A stretch of 57,107 bases of DNA from an uncultured Verrucomicrobiota bacterium (GCA_964558455.1 CAZLEE010000002.1:1-57107); one strand, 5' to 3'. Positions 17,976-45,131 are shown, numbered from the stretch's first letter. Translations and numbers: made by a program. Notes: a model not told the origin generated them from the letters alone.

Positions 17976-19013
17976 TCAGGGATTGGCGGCCAGGAGTGCG
18001 TTCACCGATGAAATCACCGCGAAGGCGTCGGCGACGTATAGAACGTCGGCTTTGCCGCGCGCCCAGCCGCAATTCGGATCAAGACTGATGGCCCGACGTT
18101 CGCCAATGAAACGCCATCCCACCGTGTGTGGTTCTTCGCCGTGACAACAAGTGCTTAAACCTTTTGCGTGCCGGGGAGTCGCCCCGGTCTGGCCGATCTG
18201 GTTCAGATGGGATAGGAACGGCAACACCGCCTGCCCTTCGCCCCCCAAATCCACCAGCGATTTGCTGCTGCCCAGCGAGGCGCGCGTAACATTAAGAAAA
18301 TCCAGAATTAACTTCTCCGCTTCGGGAACGTGCGTCTGACCATCGGCTTGTTTTTTCGTCCAGCCCGCGCCGGTCACGAAAAGCAAGGGCGAGTCGGGAC
18401 GGATCGTTTGCGCGCTGGCTTTCGGCTCGCGAATGCCAACCACGGTCGTGCGCCGGCTGACATCGGCCAGGTTCACCGGAACCAATTCAACCGCCGCCTT
18501 GCCTGCGCCGCAATCACACGCCGGCTGGCTGCCGGGGTCAACCAGCATGAACCATGGACGCTGGGTTCTGCCCAGGACAGCCTCCATGCGCTGGCGATAA
18601 TACCAGCGGTTGACGGTGGGCTTTCCGCCAATCTGGGCAATGCCGGTCACATGGGAATCCACGCGCCCGCCCAGCCGTTGCGCCACGCCGGACAAGACGC
18701 GGTTCCAACGTGAAGTCGCCGGAGCGATAACGAGTGTGGCCTGCGCGGCCTTGCACAAAGCCGTCGCCGCCGCCGCATCAGTGGCGTAGCGCGACTGGCC
18801 AAATTCCGCGCCGGTCGCGCCAAAATATTTTATGGCGGGGCAAGCGGCGATGGAATCCGCCGCCGCCTGCACATTTTCGCCAACCAGCGCAACGAACAAA
18901 TTCGAACCGGGGATGGCTGTGTGCAAAGCGCTGGCGGCAAACAAGGATTCGCGGGCTGATTTGGCCAGCAAACCGTCCGTTTCGACGTGAGCGAGAAGAA
19001 GAATTGTTTCCAT
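17976..19013 (-). CDS. etfA: Electron transfer flavoprotein alpha subunit (FixB-like), divergent
   Basis: Adenine-nucleotide alpha-hydrolase-like N-domain. C-domain has FVTGAGW, LGSSKSLVD, QIGQTG and KADVLYVAD. Confidence 0.85.
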   Translation of the reverse strand: METILLLAHVETDGLLAKSARESLFAASALHTAIPGSNLFVALVGENVQAAADSIAACPAIKYFGATGAEFGQSRYATDAAAATALCKAAQATLVIAPATSRWNRVLSGVAQRLGGRVDSHVTGIAQIGGKPTVNRWYYRQRMEAVLGRTQRPWFMLVDPGSQPACDCGAGKAAVELVPVNLADVSRRTTVVGIREPKASAQTIRPDSPLLFVTGAGWTKKQADGQTHVPEAEKLILDFLNVTRASLGSSKSLVDLGGEGQAVLPFLSHLNQIGQTGATPRHAKGLSTCCHGEEPHTVGWRFIGERRAISLDPNCGWARGKADVLYVADAFAVISSVNALLAANP

Positions 19014-19052
19014 GTTGGTGATTTTCGCGGGTTTAAGGGGTTGCTTGATTTC

Positions 19053-19859
19053 TCACTTCTTGATCCATTGCACGATTTCCTGGGCAATCTCCGCCGGAGA
19101 CTTGTCCTTGACGATTCTGGTGGTGCGTAGTTGTTTCGGCAGCGTCACGCCGGCAAAAGTCAGTCCTTCGCCCGCAAGCTTCACCGGTTTGGCCTTCTGC
19201 AACGACGGCATCACAACGCGCATGTTGGCCATTCCAACCTGCGGATTATTCTTGGGCTCGGGCAAATTTCCCGTGGCCCATCCCAGCAGCGCCGGCGGCC
19301 CGTCGCACTTCGAAACCTGATGTTTGCCACCTTCGATGCGCTCCAGAATTTCCAGCGAACCGTCCGGGTTCACAGTGAGTTGGTCCACGCCTTGGAATTG
19401 ATCAGCGATGCCGAGATGCTCCCCCACCATTTGCATCGTCACGCCCGCGCCGCGCGAGGCCGATTCCCAGCCGCCGAAAACAAGCAGCCTGGATTTGTCG
19501 AGACCGGGGATCGTTTGGATGGCCCCGGCCAAAGCGGCGGCCACCTCAGACGCCTCGGTAAAACCGCTGGCCGGACCGTCGAGCGCCACGAGTTCAAACG
19601 GCACTTTTTGCGCAACCGTCATCATCACCTGCTGAAGCTTTGCCTTCGGGCTAAGGCTGACGAGCCAGACCTTGCTGCCGGGGGCGTTTTTGGCCAGATT
19701 CCCCGCCTCGAAAAGCGCATGGCCCGCCCACGGATCAAGGATGGCGGGCAACATCATTTCATTTTTCAGCGCCGGGCCGGCCGCGCCGGCCACCGGTTCC
19801 AGGGTTTGAAGCGGATCCGGCACGATGCTGCCGCAGACAATAATTTGGTAGGCATTCAT
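19053..19859 (-). CDS. etfB: Electron transfer flavoprotein beta subunit (FixA-like), divergent
   Basis: IIVCGSIVPDP, LDPWAGHALFEA, FGGWESASRGAG, ERIEGG and LPEPK. Adjacent to etfA. Confidence 0.85.
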   Translation of the reverse strand: MNAYQIIVCGSIVPDPLQTLEPVAGAAGPALKNEMMLPAILDPWAGHALFEAGNLAKNAPGSKVWLVSLSPKAKLQQVMMTVAQKVPFELVALDGPASGFTEASEVAAALAGAIQTIPGLDKSRLLVFGGWESASRGAGVTMQMVGEHLGIADQFQGVDQLTVNPDGSLEILERIEGGKHQVSKCDGPPALLGWATGNLPEPKNNPQVGMANMRVVMPSLQKAKPVKLAGEGLTFAGVTLPKQLRTTRIVKDKSPAEIAQEIVQWIKK

Positions 19860-19879
19860 ATATCAACTAAGTTAATAAT

Positions 19880-20485
19880 CTAATGTTTTGGGGCCGCCGG
19901 AAAATGGCGCGCCACCATTTCCCCGGCCTCCTTCAACCATCCGGCGCGCTGCGGCGGCGTGCTGGCGATGACGGGCGTAAAGGTCCGGCGCTGCGCGTCG
20001 CGCACGCCGCAAAGCCCGAACACGCACTTCTTCCACAACCCCTCAAGCGGATCGCCGAAGACCCCGCGTGTGTTCTCCTCGGGGGTGTTGGCGGTGTTGA
20101 AAATAATGGCCGATTTGGCCTTGAGCAGCCCGAACGAAACGATCTCGCCTTTATCGTTGGGACCAAACCGGTAGGCAATTTCCGGGCGCAGCACCCGGTC
20201 GATCCAGCCCTTCAAAATCGCCGGAGGCATGTCCCACCAGTTTGGATGCACGATGATGATGCCGTCGGCGGCGGCTGTTTCCCGGCAATGTTGGGCGATG
20301 ACCGGATCCAGCTTCGCGTCCGTCTCAAACTCGGCGGTGGTAAGGAGCGCGGGGAAATTTTCCTGATAAAGATCATGCAACGCCGGAGTGTGGTTGTTCC
20401 GCGCCAGCGCTTCCATCGCCGCCTGGGCTATGGCGTGGTTGAAACTTTTCGGATTCGGATGGGCCAGGATGATGGAGATGTTCAT
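19880..20485 (-). CDS. Flavodoxin-like NAD(P)H:quinone oxidoreductase (MdaB/KefF family)
   Basis: ILAHPNPKSFNHAI, DLYQENF and IIIVHPNWWDMPPAILKGWIDRV. Confidence 0.92.
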   Translation of the reverse strand: MNISIILAHPNPKSFNHAIAQAAMEALARNNHTPALHDLYQENFPALLTTAEFETDAKLDPVIAQHCRETAAADGIIIVHPNWWDMPPAILKGWIDRVLRPEIAYRFGPNDKGEIVSFGLLKAKSAIIFNTANTPEENTRGVFGDPLEGLWKKCVFGLCGVRDAQRRTFTPVIASTPPQRAGWLKEAGEMVARHFPAAPKH

Positions 20486-20491
20486 TTACTG

Positions 20492-22384
20492 TTAATTTTC
20501 CGCCGAGTGCAATCCGCCCGTGCCGGCATTGAAGGCGACAGCCATGCGTTCGGGGTTTTCCGGCGAGGCGGAAGCGCAGTTCCACAGGCACGCGCCGCAG
20601 TGGACGCATTTCTCGCGGTCAAAATCCGGCACGCCATTCCCGCCGGGAGTAATCGCCTGGCCGGAACAGACTTCGATGCAAAGCTTCGTGCCGCATTGCC
20701 GGCATAGGTTGGGAAAAACAAACGCAACGTGATCGGCGTAGCCCGGCGGCGCCTGCACTTTTCCGCCCATCAATAACGCGTCCTGATGCGAAACAAGCAA
20801 TTGGCCGTCATACGGAATCGCCGGCCAGCCCGCGCGTTCCATCAGGGCGGCATGAGCGGAAACTCCCCGCGCGTAACAATCATCCCGGATACGGCACGCC
20901 TCGTCAGCCGGAATACGGCCCCGAAAATATTCTTCGAGCGAAGGAATGCGTTCCCAAGGGCAAAGCGGTTTGCCGGGAAGCGTCAGACGCCCGCCGCTCA
21001 AACCCGCCAGAGCCATGCCGACCATGCCGGTGACAACGCCCCGTTGGAATCCGTCCCGGGATTTCTCGGCGACGGCGGCTTCACGCCCCACCCAGCTTTC
21101 CTGGCGGCGTTTCACGTAGGTCGCCTCGAGATTTTCTTTTGAGAAAGGCTTTTTCGCCTTGAGCAATTCAATCACCGCCTCCGCCAGTTGCGTTCCCGTG
21201 GCCCAGGCTTCGTCCACTCCTGATCCGGTAAGGACATTGGTGCTGCCGCTGCCTTCACCGATGCGCGCGTAGCCGTCGCCCGCGAGACGCGGCTCGCCCT
21301 GGCGGCCGGATTCGCCCAGCGTCTTCGCGCCCCACGAACGAAGTTTGCCCCCCTTGAGAAACCGCCAGAGATAGGGGTGCATCATCCAATGCTGAAGATA
21401 GCGGTAAGTGGTGCGCATCGGGTTGTCGAACCAGGACGGAACGAATATGCCGAGCGAAGCGACCCGGTCGGGATGCACGTATAAAAAACCGAAAATTTCC
21501 GGCTCGGGATACCCGAAAGTGTGCAGCACGGTGCCCGGTTTAAGCGGCGTGTCCTCTGGCAAATCCACCACAAACTTCATCCCCACCGCCCACTCGCGAA
21601 TGTGGTGGTTTTCCGGCAAACCGAAAAGATCATCCAATTGCCGTCCGATCGGCCCCACCGGACCGTCGCCCACCACGGTCAGCGCGGCGCGAATGTCCAT
21701 GCCCGGCGTGAAGCCGTCAGAGGGCGCGCCTTGTTTGGTCACGCCTTGATCCTGCAACCGGACGCCAACCACTTTTTTATCCTCAACCACCGCCCGCGCG
21801 ACCGGCGTGCCGGGCCAGATTTGAACCGTCCCCGTGTTTTGGATTTGCGCCCCCACCCATTGCATAAACTGTCCCATCGAAAACACCATGCCGCCCTGCT
21901 TGTGGAGAAAGCCCGGCGTCCACGGCAAGCTCAGCGCCTCGTGCTCGACCGGCAGCGCCCATTTGCACGAGCGTATCATTCCGTCGCCCAACCGCAACAG
22001 GGCCGACCGCCGGCTGGCGCCAATCGGATCCAGCAGGTAAAGCACTTTCTCCTCGCCAACCGGCGCGGACATGGGGATGCCCGCCTTTTCAATATCCGGA
22101 ATACTGATGCGCAACGCGCGCGCTTTTGTGACCACGCCGGAAACACCGAAACCGATGTCGTCCGCCCGTTCGTAACAAAGCACCTGTGGCGGCAAACCGG
22201 GCGCCACCGCGCTTTCCACCGCCGGCGTCCCGTCGGCGTTGACCAGTTGTTTGGAGAGCGTGGAAAGAAAGCCCGCCGTGGCCGGCCCAAATCCAACGCA
22301 AACGATATCCGCGTCCATGCGCGGACGTTCAATCGAATCCGGCAAGGGGGCGGTCGTTGCGGAGTTCATGTCAATCACATTCAA
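20492..22384 (-). CDS. ETF:quinone oxidoreductase-like FixC-FixX fusion (FAD plus ferredoxin)
   Basis: DIVCVGFGPA FAD motif, VGDGPVG, WAVGMK, IGEGSG, and C-terminal CRQCGTKLCIEVC and CVHCGACLWNC. Confidence 0.88.
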   Translation of the reverse strand: MNVIDMNSATTAPLPDSIERPRMDADIVCVGFGPATAGFLSTLSKQLVNADGTPAVESAVAPGLPPQVLCYERADDIGFGVSGVVTKARALRISIPDIEKAGIPMSAPVGEEKVLYLLDPIGASRRSALLRLGDGMIRSCKWALPVEHEALSLPWTPGFLHKQGGMVFSMGQFMQWVGAQIQNTGTVQIWPGTPVARAVVEDKKVVGVRLQDQGVTKQGAPSDGFTPGMDIRAALTVVGDGPVGPIGRQLDDLFGLPENHHIREWAVGMKFVVDLPEDTPLKPGTVLHTFGYPEPEIFGFLYVHPDRVASLGIFVPSWFDNPMRTTYRYLQHWMMHPYLWRFLKGGKLRSWGAKTLGESGRQGEPRLAGDGYARIGEGSGSTNVLTGSGVDEAWATGTQLAEAVIELLKAKKPFSKENLEATYVKRRQESWVGREAAVAEKSRDGFQRGVVTGMVGMALAGLSGGRLTLPGKPLCPWERIPSLEEYFRGRIPADEACRIRDDCYARGVSAHAALMERAGWPAIPYDGQLLVSHQDALLMGGKVQAPPGYADHVAFVFPNLCRQCGTKLCIEVCSGQAITPGGNGVPDFDREKCVHCGACLWNCASASPENPERMAVAFNAGTGGLHSAEN

Positions 22385-22390
22385 CGCGCG

Positions 22391-24589
22391 TTATGCCGGG
22401 TAATCCAGCGCCTCGCGCGTCATGACCGTGGTCAGCGCCTCGGCGGCGCGATCCTTGGCCAGACGGCATCCGGTGAGGCAGGTGTCCAGTTTCGCGCGCA
22501 ACGCGACGAACTCTTCCAGTCCGTCGCATTTCACGCACGGCCCCGCTTTGAGCGCATGCGCTTCGCCCGCTTCGGACACGTCGGAAACAGACCGGGCCGA
22601 AGCGTCGATGCCGGGAATAATTCCATCAAGCGAGGTCAGTTCCTCCGCGCCATAACAAGCCTGGCAATTCGCCTCATCCCACGTCGGGTGGCGATTGTAA
22701 CCATGCACGATTTCAGCGGAAATGCGGCCGACTTCGCCTGCGGCGCGGGCCGCTTGAATATGGCAAAGGTCGGTGAAAAACGCCACCGTTCCGGCCAGTC
22801 CTCCGGCCAGCGCCGGATTTTCCGCGCCCTTGGTTTCCAGCTCAATGACGTCAAGAATAAATTGTCTTGAAGCCAGCAGCCAGCACAACGCGTCGGCCAG
22901 TGGGAAGGTCACCCCCTGCCGCGCCTTATGATAAAGCTTCGCGCCATCGGCGTCCGTCGCTGTTTGCGTGTGTTGCAGCGTCCAAAGCCAGAGTTTCATC
23001 GCCGTGGCCAGCGCGCAAGCGCCAGTGCCGGGACGTTCCGACGCCGTACGTTTCATTTCACCAATCCATTGCCTGAATTGGGCCAGGAACAGCTCGTTGG
23101 TCATGGTCATGGAAAGCTGCAACCGCTGCACCGCTTCCGGGCCTTCGTAGGTGGCTTCGAGCTGCGCGTCCATCCATTTCTGGCCCAGGAATCCAGGGCA
23201 ATCCTCCGTCACTCCGTAGCCTCCCATCAGACTGACGGCCTCGCGCATCATGGTCGCGCCGTGGCCGGTGTTCCAAAGTTTGCAGGCCGGGCAAAGTACA
23301 TTGGCCAGCGAATCAAGTTGAACAAACTTTGCCAGCGGACTTTCCATCGGCTGGCGTTTATTGACCAGCAGCAACGCTTCATCCTGCGCCTTGGCCAACT
23401 CCTTGAACGCAGCCCGCCCGGTCAGTTTTTTCCCGGCCAGGATGTTATCTTTCTCCTTCTCCAACGGATCAAGTTCGTCAAACAAACGAGCCGCCGCAAA
23501 GCCCAGCGACGCGCTGGCCTCGCCCGTGGCCCAAATATCCGCCAGGCGATGAAGGGCGTCCTGTTTTTGTTGGATGCCCAGTTCGTAACGCGGCGTGCCG
23601 GGCGCGCCCTGCCCCCCGCGAAAACGCCGGCGTTGATAAAGTATCACCGGCTCGACGGCGGACAGCAGTTTGGCCGCCGTCATCAAACCGACGGTCACAC
23701 GCGTGCGGCGGAACACTGCTTCGATGATTTCGCTGTGGGAATACTTCGGGATAATGACCCCGTCCTTGATTGTGTAGCCGCCGACGATCCGGCTGGCGGG
23801 CACTTTCATGTTGAAAATGGGATCGTTGGTGGACGAAAGTTGATGGACAAGTTTTTTGGTGGGCATGCCCCGATCCCAAAGCCCCGGATCGCTTTCTTCC
23901 AAAATCACCATGCAACTGCCCTTGAGTTTCGGGTCGTCGGATTCGACCGCCACCGTCACCACATTGGCAAAGCCCATGTTCGTGATGAACCGGCCCCGCT
24001 TGTCCACTTGCAGCAACGGTTCCGCACCGTCCTTCCATTCAGCGATTCGCACCCTGCCGGCCAACATGCCGGTCTCGACCCCCACGAACGGAATGGGTTC
24101 GGTCAGGGCGAACGCGGCCCGGACCTGTTTGCGGTTTTCACCGGGTTTGAGCGGCGCGGCATTGACCACATATTTGGCGCGTTGCTCCGGCGTTCCCTTT
24201 TCATGAATCGGGGCCAGCCCAAGATTTCCGGCCAGACTGCATGTGGCGGCGCCCGCGTCCACCCAGGACAATTCAAATGCCATCAACGCCAGCGCGAGAT
24301 TCTTGGGGCCGGCAATGAACCCGCCTTGTTCCGGCTCAAGAAAAGCCGCAGTGATGCCGCTTTCGTCGAAATGCGGCAGGAGGCTGGCTTTGTCCGCCGT
24401 CCACTCGTGCGAATTGCGTCCGCCTTTCGCCACCAACCGCGCCACCGGCCCGCGCGCCACCGCCCGCGCGCCTTGCACCAGCATGTGCAGATCGTATCGG
24501 TCGGCAAAGCGCCACATGACCTGGCGGAGATCATCGGAAGGCAGCGTGGTCAGCGTCGGGGACGGTTTTGCTTCAACAGTGGCATTCAT
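22391..24589 (-). CDS. Large acyl-CoA dehydrogenase family protein with a C-terminal extension
   Basis: AFALTEP, GRFITN, LVHQLSSTNDP, CKLWNTG, AVSLMGGYGVTEDCP and ATYEGPEAVQ. 732 aa. Confidence 0.9.
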   Translation of the reverse strand: MNATVEAKPSPTLTTLPSDDLRQVMWRFADRYDLHMLVQGARAVARGPVARLVAKGGRNSHEWTADKASLLPHFDESGITAAFLEPEQGGFIAGPKNLALALMAFELSWVDAGAATCSLAGNLGLAPIHEKGTPEQRAKYVVNAAPLKPGENRKQVRAAFALTEPIPFVGVETGMLAGRVRIAEWKDGAEPLLQVDKRGRFITNMGFANVVTVAVESDDPKLKGSCMVILEESDPGLWDRGMPTKKLVHQLSSTNDPIFNMKVPASRIVGGYTIKDGVIIPKYSHSEIIEAVFRRTRVTVGLMTAAKLLSAVEPVILYQRRRFRGGQGAPGTPRYELGIQQKQDALHRLADIWATGEASASLGFAAARLFDELDPLEKEKDNILAGKKLTGRAAFKELAKAQDEALLLVNKRQPMESPLAKFVQLDSLANVLCPACKLWNTGHGATMMREAVSLMGGYGVTEDCPGFLGQKWMDAQLEATYEGPEAVQRLQLSMTMTNELFLAQFRQWIGEMKRTASERPGTGACALATAMKLWLWTLQHTQTATDADGAKLYHKARQGVTFPLADALCWLLASRQFILDVIELETKGAENPALAGGLAGTVAFFTDLCHIQAARAAGEVGRISAEIVHGYNRHPTWDEANCQACYGAEELTSLDGIIPGIDASARSVSDVSEAGEAHALKAGPCVKCDGLEEFVALRAKLDTCLTGCRLAKDRAAEALTTVMTREALDYPA

Positions 24590-24601
24590 ATTTTTTTATT
24601 T

Positions 24602-25342
24602 TCACATCTCCGGCAATAAATCGCAAAACCAAAATCCCTTGGTCTGGCGCGCGCCCGGCAACGGAGAGGCGCCGGTCGCGGCGTCTTGCGCCGATTTTTC
24701 AAGCGGACGATAGACTTTTTCACCCACCCTGATTCGCAGGGCCTCCCGGAAAACAGGCCCGGCGAAGGCGAACGAATGATACTCGCCGTTTTCTCCGCAA
24801 GGATCCACGTTGGCAGGCAGCCAGCGGATAAAATCAGCGTCAATCTTCCGGCCCAAGGCCGTTTCATCCAGAAAAGCGTCATTGGCGCAACAGATGATTG
24901 AACCGAAGCCCAGCGCGATAAATTCGCGGATCAATTCCCGCGTATCCGCCTTCCAAATTGGAAAAATGCCCTTCAAATCAAGTTGCGCCAGGTTTTGTTC
25001 GCGCCAGCGCTTGAGGTCTTCCAGAAAAATATCACCGAAGGCCAGGCGCGTCACCCCCTGCGCTTTGTAGGCCAGCAAATGTTCCTTCATTTTTGCCGAG
25101 TATTCGTCGTTGGAACCGTTCTGGCTGACGAACATTTTTTGCAGCGGCAGCCCGATGGCGCGGGCTTGCATCTCAAGCAATTCCACGCGCACACCGTGCA
25201 TGGAGACGCGTTGAAACTGTTCGTTGCAGGTGGTCAGCAGCGATACAATTTCATACTTGTCCTCCGCCATTACCCGGTGCAAGGCCAGCGCGGAATCTTT
25301 TCCGCCACTCCAGCAAAAGACGATCTTTTCTTTTTTCTTCAT
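24602..25342 (-). CDS. PP-loop ATPase, diphthine-ammonia ligase (Dph6/DUF71) family
   Basis: CWSGGKDS, RVSMHG, FGDIFLEDL and DPCGENGEYHSF. Start chosen at MKKKEK. Confidence 0.9.
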   Translation of the reverse strand: MKKKEKIVFCWSGGKDSALALHRVMAEDKYEIVSLLTTCNEQFQRVSMHGVRVELLEMQARAIGLPLQKMFVSQNGSNDEYSAKMKEHLLAYKAQGVTRLAFGDIFLEDLKRWREQNLAQLDLKGIFPIWKADTRELIREFIALGFGSIICCANDAFLDETALGRKIDADFIRWLPANVDPCGENGEYHSFAFAGPVFREALRIRVGEKVYRPLEKSAQDAATGASPLPGARQTKGFWFCDLLPEM

Positions 25343-25494
25343 TTCCTCTTTCGTTTTGCCCGCGACGCCGGGTGCCGGGCCGAAGAGCATGGCGAGGATA
25401 TGTCATGGCGAGCCTCTTTATCAAGTTCGCCGAACCGAAGTTCAAACTGTCGCCAGACAGGCGACAGTTGCCGGTGCGATGCGTGATTGGCTGT

Positions 25495-27330
25495 TCAAGC
25501 CCGTTTCAACCGGACCATCACCACGGTGCATTGCGAGCCGTCCGGACTGATGAATTCGTATTCACCAAAGCTTGCGGGAATAAGGCAGGCTTGCAAAAAT
25601 TCAATGGTGGTCTGGAGGGCGGGATTTGTCTTGGAACGAATGATGACGGACTTGCCCGCCGTGACGGTCGGCACTTGCAGGTAACGCCCCTCCGTGCTGT
25701 GCGTCATCGGCTTGCTGAACACAAATCGTTCGATCTCGAACGGCATCTCGTCCAGCGTTGTGAAACGATCCATGCGCGTGTCGCCGTCGCCGCTCACCAC
25801 TACGGGGCGGGCGCGGAGATGTTCCCGGACGTATTTTTCGCGGCGCCACTTGTTGTTTCGGAACGAGTGTTCAAGATGCACTTTCATGGGGGGCGCGGTC
25901 ATGCTTTTCGCCTTGTCGTCCCAGGTGTGCCGGGCGAAGTCATAGGTGAAAAACGAATATTCCGTGCCGGCCACGCTGGGGCCGGTGTCCATTTCCAGAA
26001 TCATCTGGTTGCCGCCGTGGCCGTGTTCGGTGCCGGGCGGAATCAGGAACAGGTCGCCGACGTTGGTGGGCCAGCGGCAGACGAATTTCTGCCAGTCAAA
26101 GGCTTTCTTGTTGTTGGAGTCGCGGCAAAGGTGCTCGTATTCCTCGAGATTGGCCGTTTCCTTGAATCCCATCATGGTGCCGGCGTCCTTGTAGGCTTCG
26201 ACAATATAATAGGTCTCGTAACGCCCGAACGGCTCGTTGAAATTCCTCCTGACGTAATCAGTGTCGGGGTGGTTGTGGATGGGCATGCTGCCGCGTTCGT
26301 AAGGCACCGGGTCCTTAAAGTAACCGTCATCGAGCCAGACTTGCAGGGGAAGGAGGTCCGGGAATTCCCGATGCACCGTTTCACCGACCAATTGCACGGG
26401 ACGCTGCATGATGTTCTGGCACGGCATGTTCAACGTCGCCCGGCCCACATCGACAAGGATGCCCAGTTCGATGCCGGCCAGTTCGTTCCACGCCATGTTT
26501 TCCAAACCGGGAATCTCATCGTAAATTTCCTTGAACCGGTAGGAACCCCACGGGCCGGGTTGGGTGATCTTGACCTGCTTGATCGGTTGCCGGACCAGTT
26601 CGTCAATGATCGTGTTGTAAGCGGCGGACGGCACAAGCTTGAGCTGCCCCGCGTCCACCGCCTCCAGGTAATAATTCATCCGCGCGAAGGCTTGTTTCTT
26701 CTGCTTGAGCAGCAGATAAAAATCGCAGTAGTAATACTTCTTCCAGGCATAGGCGGCGGAGGGGTCTTCCCGTCCGAAAGTGACCAGCTTGCCGTCCCAC
26801 ATCTGCCACAACAACGGTTGCATGGTGAAATCGGCGTAAAACCGCAAGTCAAACAAATTCTCAAGGGCCGCCAGATCCGCCCCGGGCCCCAGAATGATAA
26901 CCGCCCCGGCCCCGGCCGCAGGCAGGGCGGACAGGCGGGCGCGCAAGGCCTTGATTTTCCCGGCGTCAAGGATGTCCTCCAAACTTCCGGTGCGGTTGAC
27001 GCGGCCGAACGAAGGATCATCCGTCACATAGGGCTGGCGGTAATTCTCAATCTCCGCCTCCGGTTTGTACAATCCCATGGCCGAAATGATTTCCAACGAA
27101 ACGCCTTGGGCCTTGGCGGCGTCGAGGAGGCCGGATTTCAGGCGCGCCCAATCGACGCCATACCAGCCGTCCAGGGCGGCGATGGCGGGTTTGCCCGGTT
27201 TCTTTTTTTCACCAAGCAATTTGACGATGTGGCTGACCACGGTTGAAGTGCCGCACACGACCGATTCCTGGACATGGAGCGGGAGTGCGACATGGTTGGT
27301 GGCGTTCTTTCGGTACTCGTATAAGGGCAT
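25495..27330 (-). CDS. Class I mannose-6-phosphate isomerase-like cupin with a large N-terminal domain
   Basis: QPGPWG, MPIHNHP, ETYYI, LFLIPPGTEHGHGGNQMILE and YDFAR. N-terminal IAALDGWYGVDW segment. Confidence 0.8.
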   Translation of the reverse strand: MPLYEYRKNATNHVALPLHVQESVVCGTSTVVSHIVKLLGEKKKPGKPAIAALDGWYGVDWARLKSGLLDAAKAQGVSLEIISAMGLYKPEAEIENYRQPYVTDDPSFGRVNRTGSLEDILDAGKIKALRARLSALPAAGAGAVIILGPGADLAALENLFDLRFYADFTMQPLLWQMWDGKLVTFGREDPSAAYAWKKYYYCDFYLLLKQKKQAFARMNYYLEAVDAGQLKLVPSAAYNTIIDELVRQPIKQVKITQPGPWGSYRFKEIYDEIPGLENMAWNELAGIELGILVDVGRATLNMPCQNIMQRPVQLVGETVHREFPDLLPLQVWLDDGYFKDPVPYERGSMPIHNHPDTDYVRRNFNEPFGRYETYYIVEAYKDAGTMMGFKETANLEEYEHLCRDSNNKKAFDWQKFVCRWPTNVGDLFLIPPGTEHGHGGNQMILEMDTGPSVAGTEYSFFTYDFARHTWDDKAKSMTAPPMKVHLEHSFRNNKWRREKYVREHLRARPVVVSGDGDTRMDRFTTLDEMPFEIERFVFSKPMTHSTEGRYLQVPTVTAGKSVIIRSKTNPALQTTIEFLQACLIPASFGEYEFISPDGSQCTVVMVRLKRA

Positions 27331-39730: not shown

Positions 39731-40384
39731 ATGTCTGACCTATTTCCAAAGTGGACCAATAATCTGCCGCGCAATATCATCATTGGCGCCCTTCTCGCCA
39801 GCACAGCCGTCACCGCCGGGGTCGGTTATTATTTCACGCCCAAATACACCCGGGCCGGTTACCAGCCGATTCAATCCGTCGCTTTCCCCCACGACGCGCA
39901 TGTGACCCAATTGGGACTCGATTGCCGTTACTGCCACAGCGGCGTCGAAAAGTCGTGGTATTCCAACATCCCCGCCACCTCGGTCTGCATGAATTGCCAC
40001 AACCAGGTGTTAAAAGATGACGAGCGACTGGCGGCGGTGCGGGAAAGCGCGGCCACGGGCAAACCGATCCCGTGGGTGCAGATTCATAAATTGCCGGACT
40101 ACGTCTATTTCAACCACGCCGTCCATGTGAACCGCGGCGTCAGTTGCGTCGAATGTCACGGCCAGATCAACCGCATGGATGAATCTTACCATGCCAAACC
40201 GTTGAGCATGTCTTTTTGTCTGGACTGCCATCGCGACCCCGCCCAACACCTGCGGGCGTTGGATAAAATCACCGATCTGGATTGGAAAGCGCCAAACGAG
40301 GACATGCAACGGGCCGGCGGACGGAAGCTCGCCCATGATTGGCATGTTCAATCGCTGCAAAATTGCTCGACCTGCCACCGATGA
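39731..40384 (+). CDS. actA: Alternative complex III pentaheme cytochrome c subunit
   Basis: N-terminal TM, QPIQSVAFPH and five CxxCH motifs (CRYCH, CMNCH, CVECH, CLDCH, CSTCH). Confidence 0.93.
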   Translation: MSDLFPKWTNNLPRNIIIGALLASTAVTAGVGYYFTPKYTRAGYQPIQSVAFPHDAHVTQLGLDCRYCHSGVEKSWYSNIPATSVCMNCHNQVLKDDERLAAVRESAATGKPIPWVQIHKLPDYVYFNHAVHVNRGVSCVECHGQINRMDESYHAKPLSMSFCLDCHRDPAQHLRALDKITDLDWKAPNEDMQRAGGRKLAHDWHVQSLQNCSTCHR

Positions 40385-43300
40385 AAACGATTCCTCCATC
40401 CTGTCCCGGGCCGGAAACAGGCCCGAGGTATTGGCGCAGTTTGGATCAACTGGCCAACACCCCGGAATTCCGCCAATGGGCGGAACGCGAATTTCCGGCC
40501 GGCGCGGATGACTTGAGGGACCCGCTTTCCCGCCGCAGTTTCGTCAAAATCATGTCGGCTTCTTTTCTGCTGGCCGGCTTGGGCGCGACCGGCTGCCGCC
40601 GCCCGGTTGAGAAGATTTATCCCTTTGCCAAAATGCCGGAGAATTACGTTCACGGCGTCCCGCAGTATTTTGCGACCGCCATGCCAACGCGCCGCACGGC
40701 CATCCCCCTGCTGGCAAAGTCCCACGAGGGCCGGCCCGTGAAAGTCGAGGGCAATCCCGATCATCCCGACAGCAACGGCGGCACCGATGCTCTGGCGCAA
40801 GCTTCCATTCTCGGTCTTTACGATCCGGATCGCGCCATGCGTTTCGCCCGCAATGGTTCGGGCGAAAGCCGCCAGGCTGCCTTGGACGCCCTGACCTTCA
40901 TTTCAAAAAACCTGGGGGATGGCGCCGGGCTGGCTTTTCTGCTCGAACAAAGCAGCTCCCCTTCCCGCTCGCGACTGCAACAGGCCATTTCTGAAAAATT
41001 TCCCAAGGCAAGCTGGCATATCTATGAGCCGGTCGATCTCGATTTGCCGCGTCGAGCCGCGTCGCTCAGTCACAACAGCCCGGTCGGGCCTTTTTACAAG
41101 CTGGACGAGGCGTCGGTGATTCTTGCCCTGGACTGCGATTTTATCGGCAGCGAGGAAAATTCTGTCAATAACATCCGCCGCTTCGCCCAAGGCCGTCATT
41201 TGGACGGCAGGAAAAGCCCGATGAGCCGGTTGTACGCGGTGGAAAGTCTTTTCACCCTGACCGGCGCCAACGCCGACCATCGTTTGCGCGTCGCTCCCAG
41301 CCTGCTCGTCCCGCTGCTGGCCCGTCTGGCGCTCAACATTCTGGATCCGTCCGACATGGATTCGCAATTGAATGAGCTGGCCGCCCCGGCCCAGGCCCAT
41401 GACGACTGGATTATTCCCTGCGCCACGGACCTCAAAGCCCATCCCGGCAAAAGCCTGGTCATGGGCGGCTACCGTCTGCCGCCCGCCGCGCATTTGCTGG
41501 TGGCGGCAATGAACGAGGCGCTGGGATCTGTCAATCATACTCTCGAATACCATCCGGTTCAGTCGTCCGCGGAAGGGACGATTGCCGAGTTGGCCGGCGC
41601 GCTCAACGCCGGACAGGTTCAAACCCTGGTCATTCTCGGCGGCAATCCCGCCTACAACGCGCCCGTTGACTTGAACTGGCCGCAAGCGCAAGCCAAAGCG
41701 GGAATGGTTATCCGCCTCGGTAACTACGAAGACGAAACTTCATGGAACGCCGCCTTGCACCCCGACCGTCAATGGGATTTGCCGGCGGCCCATTATCTCG
41801 AAGCCTGGGACGACGCCCGCACCGCAGACGGCTCCGTCGTGCCAATTCAGCCGCTGATTGAACCCTTGTTTGGCGGTTTGACCGAATTGGAGGTGCTCGC
41901 CACCATCGGCGGCCTTTCCCCAACCAGCCCGTATGAAATCGTCCGTCAAACCCATCGCAAAATGAGCGGGGACGACGAAAACAGTTGGCGAAAATTTCTG
42001 CATGACGGTTTTCTGGCCGGCAGCGCGTCGGCAAAAGCGGTGGTGCAATATGATCCGGCGGCGTTGGGGCAGGCATTGGATCAGATCAAATCAGATGGTT
42101 CCGTAGCGACCAGCGCCAGGCTGGATGTGATTTTTTACCGGGATGCGAAGGTGGACGACGGACGCTACAACAACAACGGCTGGTTGCAGGAATTGCCCGA
42201 TCCGGTGACAAAATTGACTTGGGACAACGCCGTTTTGATCAGCCCGAAAACCGCCAGGGACCTGGGTGTTTTCACGGAACGTCTTCGTCAGAGCCAGCAG
42301 TTTTTCAATTGCGTCGTCGAAATCAAACTGGGTGGCCGCTCCATTCGCGGCCCGGTTTGGGTACAGCCCGGCATGGCCGACAACACCGTCGGACTGGCCT
42401 TGGGCTACGGACGACAAAAAACCGGACGGGTCGGCGCCGGCACGGGTTTCAATGCTTATGCCATCCGCGGCAGCAACGCGCTCCATTACGCATCCGGGGC
42501 CGAACTGGTCAAAATCAGCGGCACGAGCTACGAACTGGCCAACACCCAAAGCCACTGGCACATGGAGGGCCGCCCGATCGTGCGCGAAGCCAATCTGGAT
42601 CAGTTCCGGCGGGACCCGGCCTTTGCCAAAAGGATGCGGCCGGAATTGCCGGCCAACTCCGGCTCGCTTTATCCCAATCCGCTGGATGAGACGAAAAAAA
42701 ACGCCCTGCATCAATGGGGCATGTCGATTGATTTAAACCGGTGCGTTGGCTGCTCCGCCTGCATGATCGCCTGCCAAAGCGAAAACAATATCCCGATTGT
42801 GGGCAAGGATATGGTCGGCAAAAGCCGTGAAATGCACTGGATCCGCATTGACCGCTATTACGCCGGACCGGAAAAAAATCCGGACGAGGAACCGCAAGCC
42901 GTTATGCAGCCAATGCTCTGCCAGCACTGCGAAATGGCTCCTTGCGAAAGTGTTTGCCCGGTCAACGCCACCTCGCACGACGACGAGGGTTTGAACGTCA
43001 TGACCTACAACCGGTGCGTCGGCACGCGCTATTGTTCAAACAACTGCCCGTATAAGGTCCGGCGTTTCAATTTTTTCGATTACAACCGCCGCCCGCTCAA
43101 TCATCTTTACCAAAGCCCGCTCGTCATGACCACGGACGGCGAATGGGAACTGTGGCGCTGGCTCAAGAACCCGGACAAAGGCAATCTGCCGGAAGACGAA
43201 TGGCAACTGGCCCGGCTGGTGAAAAACCCGGATGTCACCGTCCGCATGCGCGGCGTCATGGAAAAATGCAGCTTCTGCTTGCAGCGCATCGAGCAGGCCA

Positions 43301-43644
43301 GGATCGCCCAAAAAATCAAGGCGCGCGACAGCGACAATATCCGCCTTTCGGAAAAAGACGGAACCATCCCCCGGACCGCCTGCCAGCAAGCCTGCCCGGC
43401 GGAGGCGATCCTTTTTGGCGACATTTCCGATCCTGAGAGCCAGGTGAGCAAGGCCAAGAAACAGGAACGCGACTACGCCGTCCTGGAATTTCTTCTGACC
43501 AAGCCGCGCACCACTTACCTGGCAAAAGTCCGCAATCCCAACCAGGAAATGCCGGACTACAAACGGCATTCCATGCCTTATACGACCGAAGAATTCAAGA
43601 GAGCGGGCGGCGCTTCTGTTGAAAGCGGGAAAGGCCCTCTCTAA
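40381..43644 (+). CDS. actB: Alternative complex III subunit B (molybdopterin-oxidoreductase-like fold plus Fe-S domain, Tat)
   Basis: [68 protein letters not shown] and MEKCSFC. Confidence 0.95.
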
Positions 43645-45131
43645 TGGATCATTTCCCCGCCAGTTCATTGGTAGTGGATGAGCCGAAATTGCGGGTGCAG
43701 GCGCCGCCGCCGGCGTTGGAGCGCGCGCCGTTGGTAAACAACCTTCGCAGCCCCGGCTGGATTTCCGACCGGATTGCCAGCGTCATTGAGGGCGGGACGC
43801 CGGGTTGGTGGAAAATCAGTTTCGGCATCAGTGTGACCCTTATGACCCTTTGCTTCGCGATGGTTCTCTGGCTCATGTCCACCGGCGTCGGCCTCTGGGG
43901 CAATCAACATCCGATGATGTGGGGCTGGGCGATTATCAACTTCGTCTGGTGGATCGGCATCGGCCACGCCGGGACGTTGATTTCGTCCATCTTGTTTCTG
44001 CTTCGCCAGCGCTGGCGCACGTCCATCAACCGCACGGCCGAGGCCATGACCATTTTTGCCGTGGTGTGCGCAGGCCTGTTCCCGCTCATTCACATCGGGC
44101 GGATTTGGCTGGGTTGGTGGTTGTTGTCCTTTCCCAACTCGAACAATATCTGGCCGCAATTCCGTTCGCCGCTGATGTGGGACGTGTTTGCCGTCTCGAC
44201 CTATTTCACCGTGTCGGTGCTCTTCTGGTACATGGGATTGATCCCCGACCTGGCGGTTATGCGGGACCGGGCCAAAACCAAAATACGGAAATTCGCCTAC
44301 GGACTGTTCTCGTTGGGCTGGACCGGATCCACCCGCCATTGGAGCAATTACGAAAAAGCCTATCTGATTCTGGCCGGCCTTTCCACGGTGTTGGTGCTGT
44401 CGGTTCATTCCATCGTGTCGCTGGACTTCTCCGTTTCGCAGCTTCCGGGCTGGCACACCACCATTTTCCCGCCCTACTTCGTCGCCGGCGCGGTCTATTC
44501 CGGCTTCGGCATGGTGCTGACACTGCTGATTCCCTTGCGCCGGCTGCTCAAACTCGAGGATATCATCACCGTCCGGCATGTGGATTTGATGTGCAAAATC
44601 GCCCTGACCACCGGCTCCATTGTCGGTTACGCCTACTGCATGGAATTTTTCATCGCTTGGTATGGCGGCAATCCTAACGAAAAGTTCATGTTCTTCCACA
44701 ATCGCGCGGCGGACCCGTTCATTTTCGGCCCGCTCCTCGGCATCCAGCCCGCTCCTTATTGGTGGGCTTTCTGGACCATGGTTTTCTGCAACGTCGTCGT
44801 GCCGCAATTTTTCTGGTTCAAAAAAATCCGGTCCGGCCTGTGGTTCGTTTTCGGGTTGGCGATCCTGATTAACGTCGGCATGTGGTTCGAACGTTTTGTC
44901 ATCGTCATCACTTCCTTGCAACGGGATTTTCTCCCGTCCAACTGGAGTGATTACAGCCCGACATTCGTGGACGTCCTGCAATTTCTTGGGACGTTCGGAT
45001 TGTTCTTCACCCTGTTCCTGCTCTTCCTGCGTTTCGTGCCGTTAATCGCCATCGCCGAAGTCAAGGGCGTCACCCCGCAGGCTGATCCTCATCATCCGCT
45101 CGGCGGCGCAAAAATAGGAGGGAAACTCTGA
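43644..45131 (+). CDS. actC: Alternative complex III subunit C (NrfD/PsrC family, quinol-binding)
   Basis: [45 protein letters not shown] and [11 protein letters not shown]. Confidence 0.95.

Follow-up and report, generated by a model that had tools for sequence, protein, structure and literature searches.

A four-gene module that joins a divergent electron-transfer flavoprotein to a long acyl-CoA dehydrogenase in Verrucomicrobiota and Acidobacteriota

Introduction

In the mitochondrial and proteobacterial chain, represented by human MCAD and VLCAD, the electron-transfer flavoprotein (ETF) 1EFV and the pig ETF:quinone oxidoreductase (ETF-QO) 2GMH, an acyl-CoA dehydrogenase (ACAD), an ETF of group 1 (G1) and an ETF-QO are arranged in three tiers. 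In a related arrangement, that of the bifurcating complexes FixABCX of A. vinelandii and EtfABCX of T. maritima (7KOE), the ETF acts together with a quinone-reducing flavoprotein of FixC type and a ferredoxin module that holds two clusters; the E. coli sets CaiA-FixABCX and YdiO-YdiQRST add a partner of the ACAD family. ETFs are classed in five groups, and current views of how they transfer or bifurcate electrons are built on the residues of their flavin site; a phylogeny with groups 1 to 5 was reportedly published by Garcia Costas et al. in 2017. The locus described here lies in a stretch of 57,107 nt (GCA_964558455.1, CAZLEE010000002.1:1-57107; hereafter the window) from an uncultured bacterium of the Verrucomicrobiota, a Limisphaerales-type metagenome-assembled genome (MAG) of 4.47 Mb that is 91% complete. 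It encodes a long ACAD, an ETF-QO-like iron-sulfur flavoprotein and a highly divergent ETF pair, EtfB and EtfA, which together form a module that recurs in at least two phyla.

The module has the three-tier logic in common with the mitochondrial chain. Its ACAD keeps the Glu of the YEG motif and the FAD motifs, its EtfB has the ETF fold with a recognition-loop-like segment, and its ETF-QO-like protein aligns with pig ETF-QO over the FAD and ubiquinone (UQ)-binding domains. Unlike that chain, it has an EtfA without the PF00766 domain, altered nucleotide loops in both ETF subunits, a ferredoxin domain with two [4Fe-4S] clusters in place of the single-cluster domain of ETF-QO, and an ACAD of 732 aa with 15-19% identity to the solved long enzymes, and most of its carriers lack beta-oxidation genes. 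With FixABCX and EtfABCX it shares the ETF, the quinone-reducing flavoprotein and the two-cluster ferredoxin module, and with the two E. coli systems also the ACAD-family partner; it departs from them in carrying C and X as a single fused protein, whose FixC-like part stands closer to ETF-QO than to FixC, and in lacking the motifs of group 2 (G2) ETFs.

A core of four genes

The cluster consists of six co-directional open reading frames (ORFs) on the minus strand, which span 17976-25390 of the window and are separated by gaps of 12, 6, 6, 20 and 39 nt, so that the coordinates, strand and spacing given by an earlier reading of the DNA alone (the sequence-only reading) are reproduced. That reading had taken the six genes for one functional operon, and a survey of neighbourhoods, in which 80 related loci taken from species-representative genomes were searched with all six proteins, has reduced this unit. 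The ACAD and ETF-QO-like genes are adjacent in about 68 of the 80 loci and EtfB-EtfA follow downstream in about 35; the gene for an NAD(P)H:quinone-oxidoreductase-type protein (NQO) is part of the cluster at only seven loci, and the Dph6-like gene stands beside the ACAD at none of them. The functional core is made up of four genes, those for the ACAD, the ETF-QO-like protein, EtfB and EtfA, and clustering of the ORFs of 84 related loci gave no conserved neighbour beyond these four.

The core is strictly co-inherited. Among 121 genomes drawn evenly from the window's order, the ACAD is present in 29 (the carriers, leaving 92 non-carriers) and EtfA in exactly the same 29, often with more than 100 kb between the two genes or with each on a contig of its own. 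In another family of the Verrucomicrobiota, five genomes have an ACAD locus without the ETF-QO-like gene and EtfBA, and in each of them EtfA and the ETF-QO-like gene are found elsewhere in the genome.

The divergent ETF pair

EtfA, the alpha (large) subunit of 345 aa (17976-19013, minus strand), and EtfB, the beta (small) subunit of 268 aa (19053-19859, minus strand), are genuine members of the ETF superfamily by fold and by profile. They can be called divergent because searches of all PDB chains with either single sequence return no ETF at E<1. EtfA matches PF01012 at 55 bits and PF00766 not at all; the profile of its family aligns with C. difficile EtfA over the full length, with the motifs in register (5ol2_A, 4e-17), and with 6fah_A (9e-10), and recovers no human or Paracoccus G1 chain at E<1. 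EtfB reaches only 24 bits against PF01012, which is below the cut-off, and was therefore examined by its fold; the profile of its family matches only CarD (E 0.003). When the AlphaFold2 (AF2) model of EtfB (pLDDT 81.6) is compared with the PDB in Foldseek, the 20 best matches are all ETF beta chains, with E values of 6e-14 to 4e-10. EtfB is also the most conserved protein of the module, with a mean column identity of 80% (alignment A4).

Both nucleotide sites are rewritten. The EtfA loop that reads GISGAIQH in canonical ETFs is an invariant CCHGEEPH (residues 289-296, nt 18126-18149), and in 24 sequences drawn from two phyla C289, C290, H291, H296 and C315 never vary. The C-terminal domain that holds them is near-invariant across two phyla: GQTG and the terminal His are retained, GWT is found for GRG and SKS for SR(A), a further invariant Cys lies in NCGW, and K251 occupies the position of the flavin-stacking Arg. 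In EtfB, the nucleotide 'zipper' loop is replaced by SASRGAGxTxQ, with loss of its acidic residues, and a recognition-loop-like segment, LPEPxNNPQxGMxNM, is present.

These loops set the pair apart from the groups for which signatures have been described. The EtfB loop of group 1 reads DDDSNQ (PMC8958531), where SRGAGxTxQ is found here, beside an EtfA that has neither PF00766 nor GISGAIQH. Group 2 is marked by RPxFGG in the large subunit and by RxGV, GxxSPTxV and DGDTAQ in the small subunit (PMC10734219, PMC8958531). In the divergent pair RPxFGG reads RWYYRQ, RxGV reads KNEM, GxxSPTxV has no counterpart and DGDTAQ reads (R)GAGxTxQ, only the Arg (R136) being kept. The large-subunit sequences of G1-G5 examined in parts 3 and 4 of the supplementary table of PMC10734219 all have a GxSG-type loop, mostly GISGxxQH with a few variants. 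A string search of both supplementary files of that work found none of the motif strings of the divergent EtfBA, CCHGEEPH included, so that this loop occurs in no representative of G1-G5 tabulated there. The CCHGEEPH string has no occurrence in the literature searched, nor was any publication on the four-gene module found in it. The suggestion of the sequence-only reading that this is a distinct ETF class thus appears to be supported at the level of signatures, the comparison being one of motifs and sequence strings.

It is conceivable that EtfBA goes beyond this and founds a sixth ETF class, with an electron-transfer site chemically unlike that of the ETFs studied so far. The flavin there might be covalently bound or otherwise modified, or its place taken by a metal or Fe-S centre, because an invariant Cys-Cys-His...His...Cys set and two Glu residues stand where the pyrophosphate-binding GISGA loop would be expected. 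Such a class would serve a single orphan ACAD and a thioester outside beta-oxidation, either oxidised or reduced, in aerobic soil Verrucomicrobiota and Acidobacteriota. This wider proposal is put forward tentatively, as possible rather than probable.

The ETF-QO-like iron-sulfur flavoprotein

The second core gene (20492-22384, minus strand) encodes a flavoprotein of about 615-630 aa with a C-terminal ferredoxin domain for two [4Fe-4S] clusters. Pfam assigns it to PF21162 (ETFQO_UQ-bd) and to Fer4 families, and among solved structures pig ETF-QO 2gmh comes closest to it (phmmer E 3.6e-37). The eight Cys of the two cluster motifs (residues 561-603, nt 20576-20704), which make up the dicluster ferredoxin domain, and the dinucleotide motif VGFGPAxxG are invariant in 17 sequences. 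The single-cluster domain Fer4_ETF_QO (PF05187) has no match in the protein, which is predicted to work like ETF-QO yet is not a canonical member of that family. The sequence-only reading had named it a FixC-FixX fusion. A two-cluster feature like that of FixX is indeed present, with the C and X parts in one protein, but the NCBIfam models of FixC give only 32 bits (PRK10015) and 29 bits (PRK10157) against cut-offs of 466 and 610, and E. coli FixA, FixB and FixC are matched only remotely, FixC by hhalign at 96% probability (E 1e-9). The protein is better described as ETF-QO-like with a dicluster ferredoxin C-terminus. The gap of 6 nt between its gene and that of the ACAD holds only for a TTG start at 22384; an ATG at 22369, 15 nt inward, is equally possible, and sequence conservation starts near residue 17.

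The long acyl-CoA dehydrogenase

The first core gene (22391-24589, minus strand) encodes the ACAD of 732 aa. Its membership of the superfamily is given by PF02771 (35 bits) and PF00441 (49.5 bits), both above the cut-off; the middle domain PF02770 is not matched in the protein, nor is PF21343. Its AF2 model (pLDDT 87.9) matches more than 300 ACAD chains, the best of them being 2z1q, 3owa, FadE5, FadE1/2, VLCAD and DmdC, and the long ACADs among them give Foldseek E values of 1e-17 to 1e-13 and TM scores of 0.55-0.62 on the query. With the long dimeric ACADs (2Z1Q of T. thermophilus, 3OWA of B. anthracis, mycobacterial FadE5, FadE1/FadE2 of P. aeruginosa, VLCAD/ACAD9 and DmdC) it has in common the ACAD core and an extra C-terminal helical domain, and it exceeds them by about 130-190 residues, with a helical insert at about 370-420 and a Cys-rich insert at about 640-705. 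What the sequence-only reading had called a giant ACAD is therefore the known VLCAD/FadE5-like architecture with lineage-specific insertions. The candidate catalytic Glu is E482 (ATYEGPEAVQ, nt 23144-23146), which aligns with IYEGTNEVQ of 1buc and is conserved across the family (alignment A1), apart from a subgroup of shorter members (about 580 aa) with L or M instead, and the FAD-contact motifs TEP163, FITN201 and GGYG456 are kept; an acyl-CoA dehydrogenase function is predicted from these residues.

The family is a small and isolated one, since a search of 1.84 billion representative proteins yielded only 853 at E<=0.001, of which many are fragments from the same family. The best NCBIfam match of the ACAD, a weak one, is the clostridial acryloyl-CoA reductase AcrC. 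The Cys-rich insert was considered as a core Fe-S or Zn site and rejected because it is lineage-specific, being missing in many relatives and variable in its cysteines (alignment A1).

The subgroup without the catalytic Glu comprises the relatives P0148, P0152, P0160, P0161, P0188 and P0213, which have about 560-586 aa and about 45% identity and read YLG, YMG or QMG at this position. They also lack the helical insert at 370-420, and one of them is named from Terracidiphilus. They may represent a paralogue without catalytic activity or with a different one. In a sample of 151 genomes of one Acidobacteriaceae-family, 21 of them module carriers, only the long form of the ACAD was found, and none of the Glu-less form of about 580 aa.

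Carriers and beta-oxidation

The absence of beta-oxidation genes near the cluster, already noticed in the sequence-only reading, extends to the whole genome. In the window's MAG, no crotonase scores above the Pfam cut-off and no FadB-type 3-hydroxyacyl-CoA dehydrogenase (3HCDH) is found; the module ACAD is the sole PF00441 hit and the module ETF the sole ETF pair. Of five other carriers, including three single-contig genomes, three have no crotonase (G197, G257 and G074), and in four the module ACAD is the only PF00441 hit, as it is in 25 of the 29 carriers of the order. To our knowledge, all textbook ACAD pathways require a hydratase of the crotonase type, and the absence of crotonase from the MAG and from three of the five other carriers argues that the module does not belong to beta-oxidation.

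Fatty-acid genes of the usual kind occur in the relatives that lack the module. A canonical VLCAD-like ACAD is encoded by 51 of the 92 non-carriers and by 4 of the 29 carriers (odds ratio 0.13, p 8e-5, from genomes that are related). Its neighbours recur across five sampled loci (L153-L157), and in the only one scanned with Pfam (L153:1578-10217, genome G416) they form an operon of patatin-like phospholipase, FadA, FadB and ACAD. Most of the non-carriers with this ACAD have no PF00766 ETF at all, and their enzyme seems to work without a recognisable ETF. Canonical EtfA (PF00766) was found in 26 of the 121 genomes of the order, of which 12 are carriers; because 12 of the 29 carriers also have a canonical ETF, the divergent one is not a stand-in for the housekeeping ETF. 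In one carrier (L119:7798-11428, contig G074:C24), the divergent EtfBA is followed downstream, after a few kb that hold a GtrA-like gene and an aldose epimerase, by genes for canonical EtfB, a ferredoxin-fused EtfA (2x4Fe-4S at the N-terminus, followed by PF00766) and canonical ETF-QO (PF05187), and the divergent EtfA of this genome lacks about 70 N-terminal residues.

The only 3HCDH domain of the MAG is fused to RidA/YjgF (L117:8146-9570, contig G000:C51) and is surrounded by genes for a D-serine-dehydratase-like protein, an amidohydrolase_2, an HpcH aldolase and a Gfo/Idh/MocA protein, a setting that suggests a pathway for sugar acids or amino sugars and not lipid metabolism. The MAG's only thiolase (L118:4904-10508, contig G000:C93) is accompanied by CoA-transferase A and B subunits, a class-III aminotransferase and a 551-aa protein with a weak radical-SAM match, a setting reminiscent of fermentation routes of the beta-amino-acid or lysine type.

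A proposed electron chain and its alternatives

We lean towards the view that the four proteins make up a dedicated acyl-thioester:quinone electron chain. The long ACAD, of VLCAD/FadE5 type, would oxidise an acyl-thioester at its alpha,beta position, the substrate being something other than a beta-oxidation intermediate, and would pass the electrons to its own dedicated ETF heterodimer. The ETF would then reduce the membrane-associated ETF-QO-like flavoprotein through its two [4Fe-4S] clusters, and this protein would reduce the quinone pool, from which alternative complex III (ACIII) and terminal oxidases would re-oxidise the quinol. We thus infer a path from the acyl-thioester to the FAD of the ACAD, the ETF, the two [4Fe-4S] clusters, FAD and finally quinone, with NQO as an accessory that travels with the module in this taxonomic order. 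The sequence-only reading had likewise seen a complete chain from substrate through ETF to quinone; its sequence of ACAD, ETF and quinone reductase stands by homology, every part being atypical, and its extension to a six-gene unit does not. It had also pointed to an ACIII about 15 kb away, and genes for a multihaem cytochrome c, an FeS subunit and an NrfD-like subunit do lie at 39731-45131, about 14 kb from the module. A specific link of the module to this ACIII is not distinguishable from a general one, because any quinone reductase would feed it.

Several points weigh against such a chain. No gene for a CoA ligase, transferase or hydratase is conserved beside the module in the 84 loci, and since nothing that supplies a substrate is conserved there, the thioester chemistry is read from the retained motifs of the ACAD. 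The rewritten EtfA flavin loop, with CCHGEEPH and with GWT for GRG, and the EtfB nucleotide loop without acidic residues mean that the usual FAD/AMP complement is not assured, although a flavin rather than another cofactor is presumed in the EtfA site. The genomes behind the co-occurrence counts and Fisher tests are related, so that their independence is overstated. Acyl-CoA oxidation with menaquinone as acceptor is thermodynamically tight, and CaiA-FixABCX and YdiO-YdiQRST of E. coli, which have the same composition, are thought to run reductively. Were the module to run in this direction, quinol, or NAD(P)H by way of NQO, would reduce the ETF-QO-like protein and the ETF, and the ACAD would act as an enoyl-thioester reductase for which an unsaturated acyl-CoA would be an electron sink or would be detoxified, as has been proposed for CaiA and YdiO. 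Beyond the composition shared with caiA and fixABCX, this would fit the remote homology of E. coli FixA, FixB and FixC to the three electron-transfer proteins (hhalign probability 75-96%), the weak match of the ACAD to AcrC, the lack of a hydratase or thiolase to carry an enoyl product onward, and the co-occurrence of an NAD(P)H-oxidoreductase-type NQO with the module in the order. The reductive direction is nevertheless judged unlikely: the E. coli proteins are only very distant homologues, the ETF-QO-like protein being nearer to the oxidative mitochondrial ETF-QO; NQO was not found among the Acidobacteriaceae-family carriers; carriers encode aerobic respiratory chains, such as the ACIII of the window; and no candidate pathway for an enoyl substrate is linked to the module.

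Electron bifurcation, as in complexes of the Fix/EtfABCX type, would have NADH oxidised at a second FAD in EtfB, with the electrons split between quinone, reached through the ETF flavin and Fe-S centres, and a low-potential acceptor, the ACAD being an extra high-potential partner. It is suggested by the EtfA profile, which scores best against the bifurcating G2 ETFs 5ol2_A and 6fah_A and finds no G1 chain, by the bifurcating CarD as the only match of the EtfB profile, and by a dicluster ferredoxin domain like that of FixX/EtfX. This reading is weakened by the missing G2 signatures RPxFGG, RxGV, GxxSPTxV and DGDTAQ, and no gene for a ferredoxin or low-potential flavodoxin is conserved nearby in the 84 loci, so that bifurcation seems quite improbable. 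As for ordinary catabolism of fatty acids or branched-chain amino acids, in which the ACAD would be a FadE, an isovaleryl-CoA or a glutaryl-CoA dehydrogenase served by a housekeeping ETF and ETF-QO, it would agree with the textbook arrangement of ACAD, ETF and ETF-QO and with the fold class of the broad-range FadE5, FadE1 and VLCAD. It is hard to reconcile with the lack of a crotonase-family hydratase in the MAG, G197, G257 and G074 and of a FadB-type 3HCDH, with the canonical ETF of 12 of the 29 carriers, with relatives in which a FadA-FadB-ACAD operon occurs mostly without the module, and with a patchy distribution (24% of the genomes sampled from the order, 6% of those from the phylum), and has very little to recommend it.

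Neighbouring genes

The gene for NQO, a protein of 201 aa with a flavodoxin-like fold (PF02525, Flavodoxin_2, at 1.8e-33), lies at 19880-20485 on the minus strand, between the ETF-QO-like gene and EtfB. It was found in 20 of the 121 genomes of the order, 19 of them module carriers (Fisher p 5e-14, the genomes being related and not independent), and in none of the 151 genomes of the Acidobacteriaceae-family. Around 14 unlinked copies no conserved neighbour gene was found. NQO is a lineage-specific accessory, which co-occurs with the module only within this verrucomicrobial order.

The Dph6-like PP-loop ATP pyrophosphatase is encoded next to the ACAD and outside the module (24602-25390, or from an ATG start at 25342, minus strand). 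It matches PF01902 at 1.6e-39 and scores 95.8 against TIGR03679, whose cut-off is 197.3, and thus stays below the level of a Dph6 equivalog. The gene is present in 12 of the 121 genomes, of which only two are carriers, and 27 of the 29 carriers are without it; in genome G363 it lies on another contig than the module. A role as activator of the substrate was ruled out by its absence from all 80 loci and its lack of co-occurrence with the module, and it is a chance, unrelated neighbour. In three genomes it adjoins a paralogue of about 29-31% identity (G403:C7:2807-4746, G367:C33:12733-14018 and G304:C18:25851-27784), and in the window's MAG such a paralogue lies on another contig (G000:C33:14786-15403). 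The Dph6-like gene is directly preceded, on its own strand, by a 611-aa ORF at 25495-27330 that has no Pfam match at E<=1e-5.

An attempt to derive the substrate from the neighbours failed. The next commonest genes encode an MqnC/CofH-like radical SAM protein (8 loci), an ORF6N protein (7) and a GT2 glycosyltransferase (7). The MqnC/CofH-type gene, of a family of futalosine-pathway menaquinone synthesis, precedes the ACAD by about 5 kb in eight closely related loci (for example L054:3552-4691), and its position is probably inherited synteny and not a functional link. The ORF6N (KilA-N-like) gene separates the ACAD gene from the ETF-QO-like gene in seven loci (for example L067:11214-11846) and looks like a recurrent mobile insertion within the operon. 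A search for riboswitches and RNA leaders with Rfam, in the window and four related loci, gave nothing at the gathering score, and a promoter and terminator scan gave scores no better than chance.

Distribution and significance

A search of 185,579 species genomes gave at least 599 matching stretches, from at least two phyla. In the Verrucomicrobiota the module family occurs in Limisphaerales, in MAGs of Chthoniobacter type, in one Akkermansiaceae MAG and in one further family, and in the Acidobacteriota in Bryobacterales, Solibacter and Acidobacteriaceae, with an ACAD identity of about 70%; in Thermodesulfobacteriota it was seen as an Atlas cluster. Carriers are scattered, amounting to 17 of 301 genomes in a sample of the phylum (6%), 29 of 121 in the order (24%) and 21 of 151 in the acidobacterial family, and this patchiness marks the module as an accessory one. 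It has probably been exchanged between phyla. Its carriers are Verrucomicrobiota and Acidobacteriota of soil, peat and freshwater, mostly without fatty-acid beta-oxidation.

A widespread ETF that has kept its fold and carries different, invariant residues at both nucleotide sites would extend the classification of these proteins, and would offer a natural experiment in how an electron-transfer cofactor is tuned or replaced. The point of greatest interest is whether the rewritten site of EtfA holds ordinary FAD. Routine annotation as acyl-CoA dehydrogenase, ETF and FixC makes metabolic reconstructions read fatty-acid oxidation from these genes, which is probably wrong. That this ETF is strictly paired with a single orphan ACAD, and in bacteria without beta-oxidation, points instead to an unrecognised redox reaction of acyl-thioesters that would supply the quinone pool, or take from it, in abundant heterotrophs of soil, peat and freshwater.

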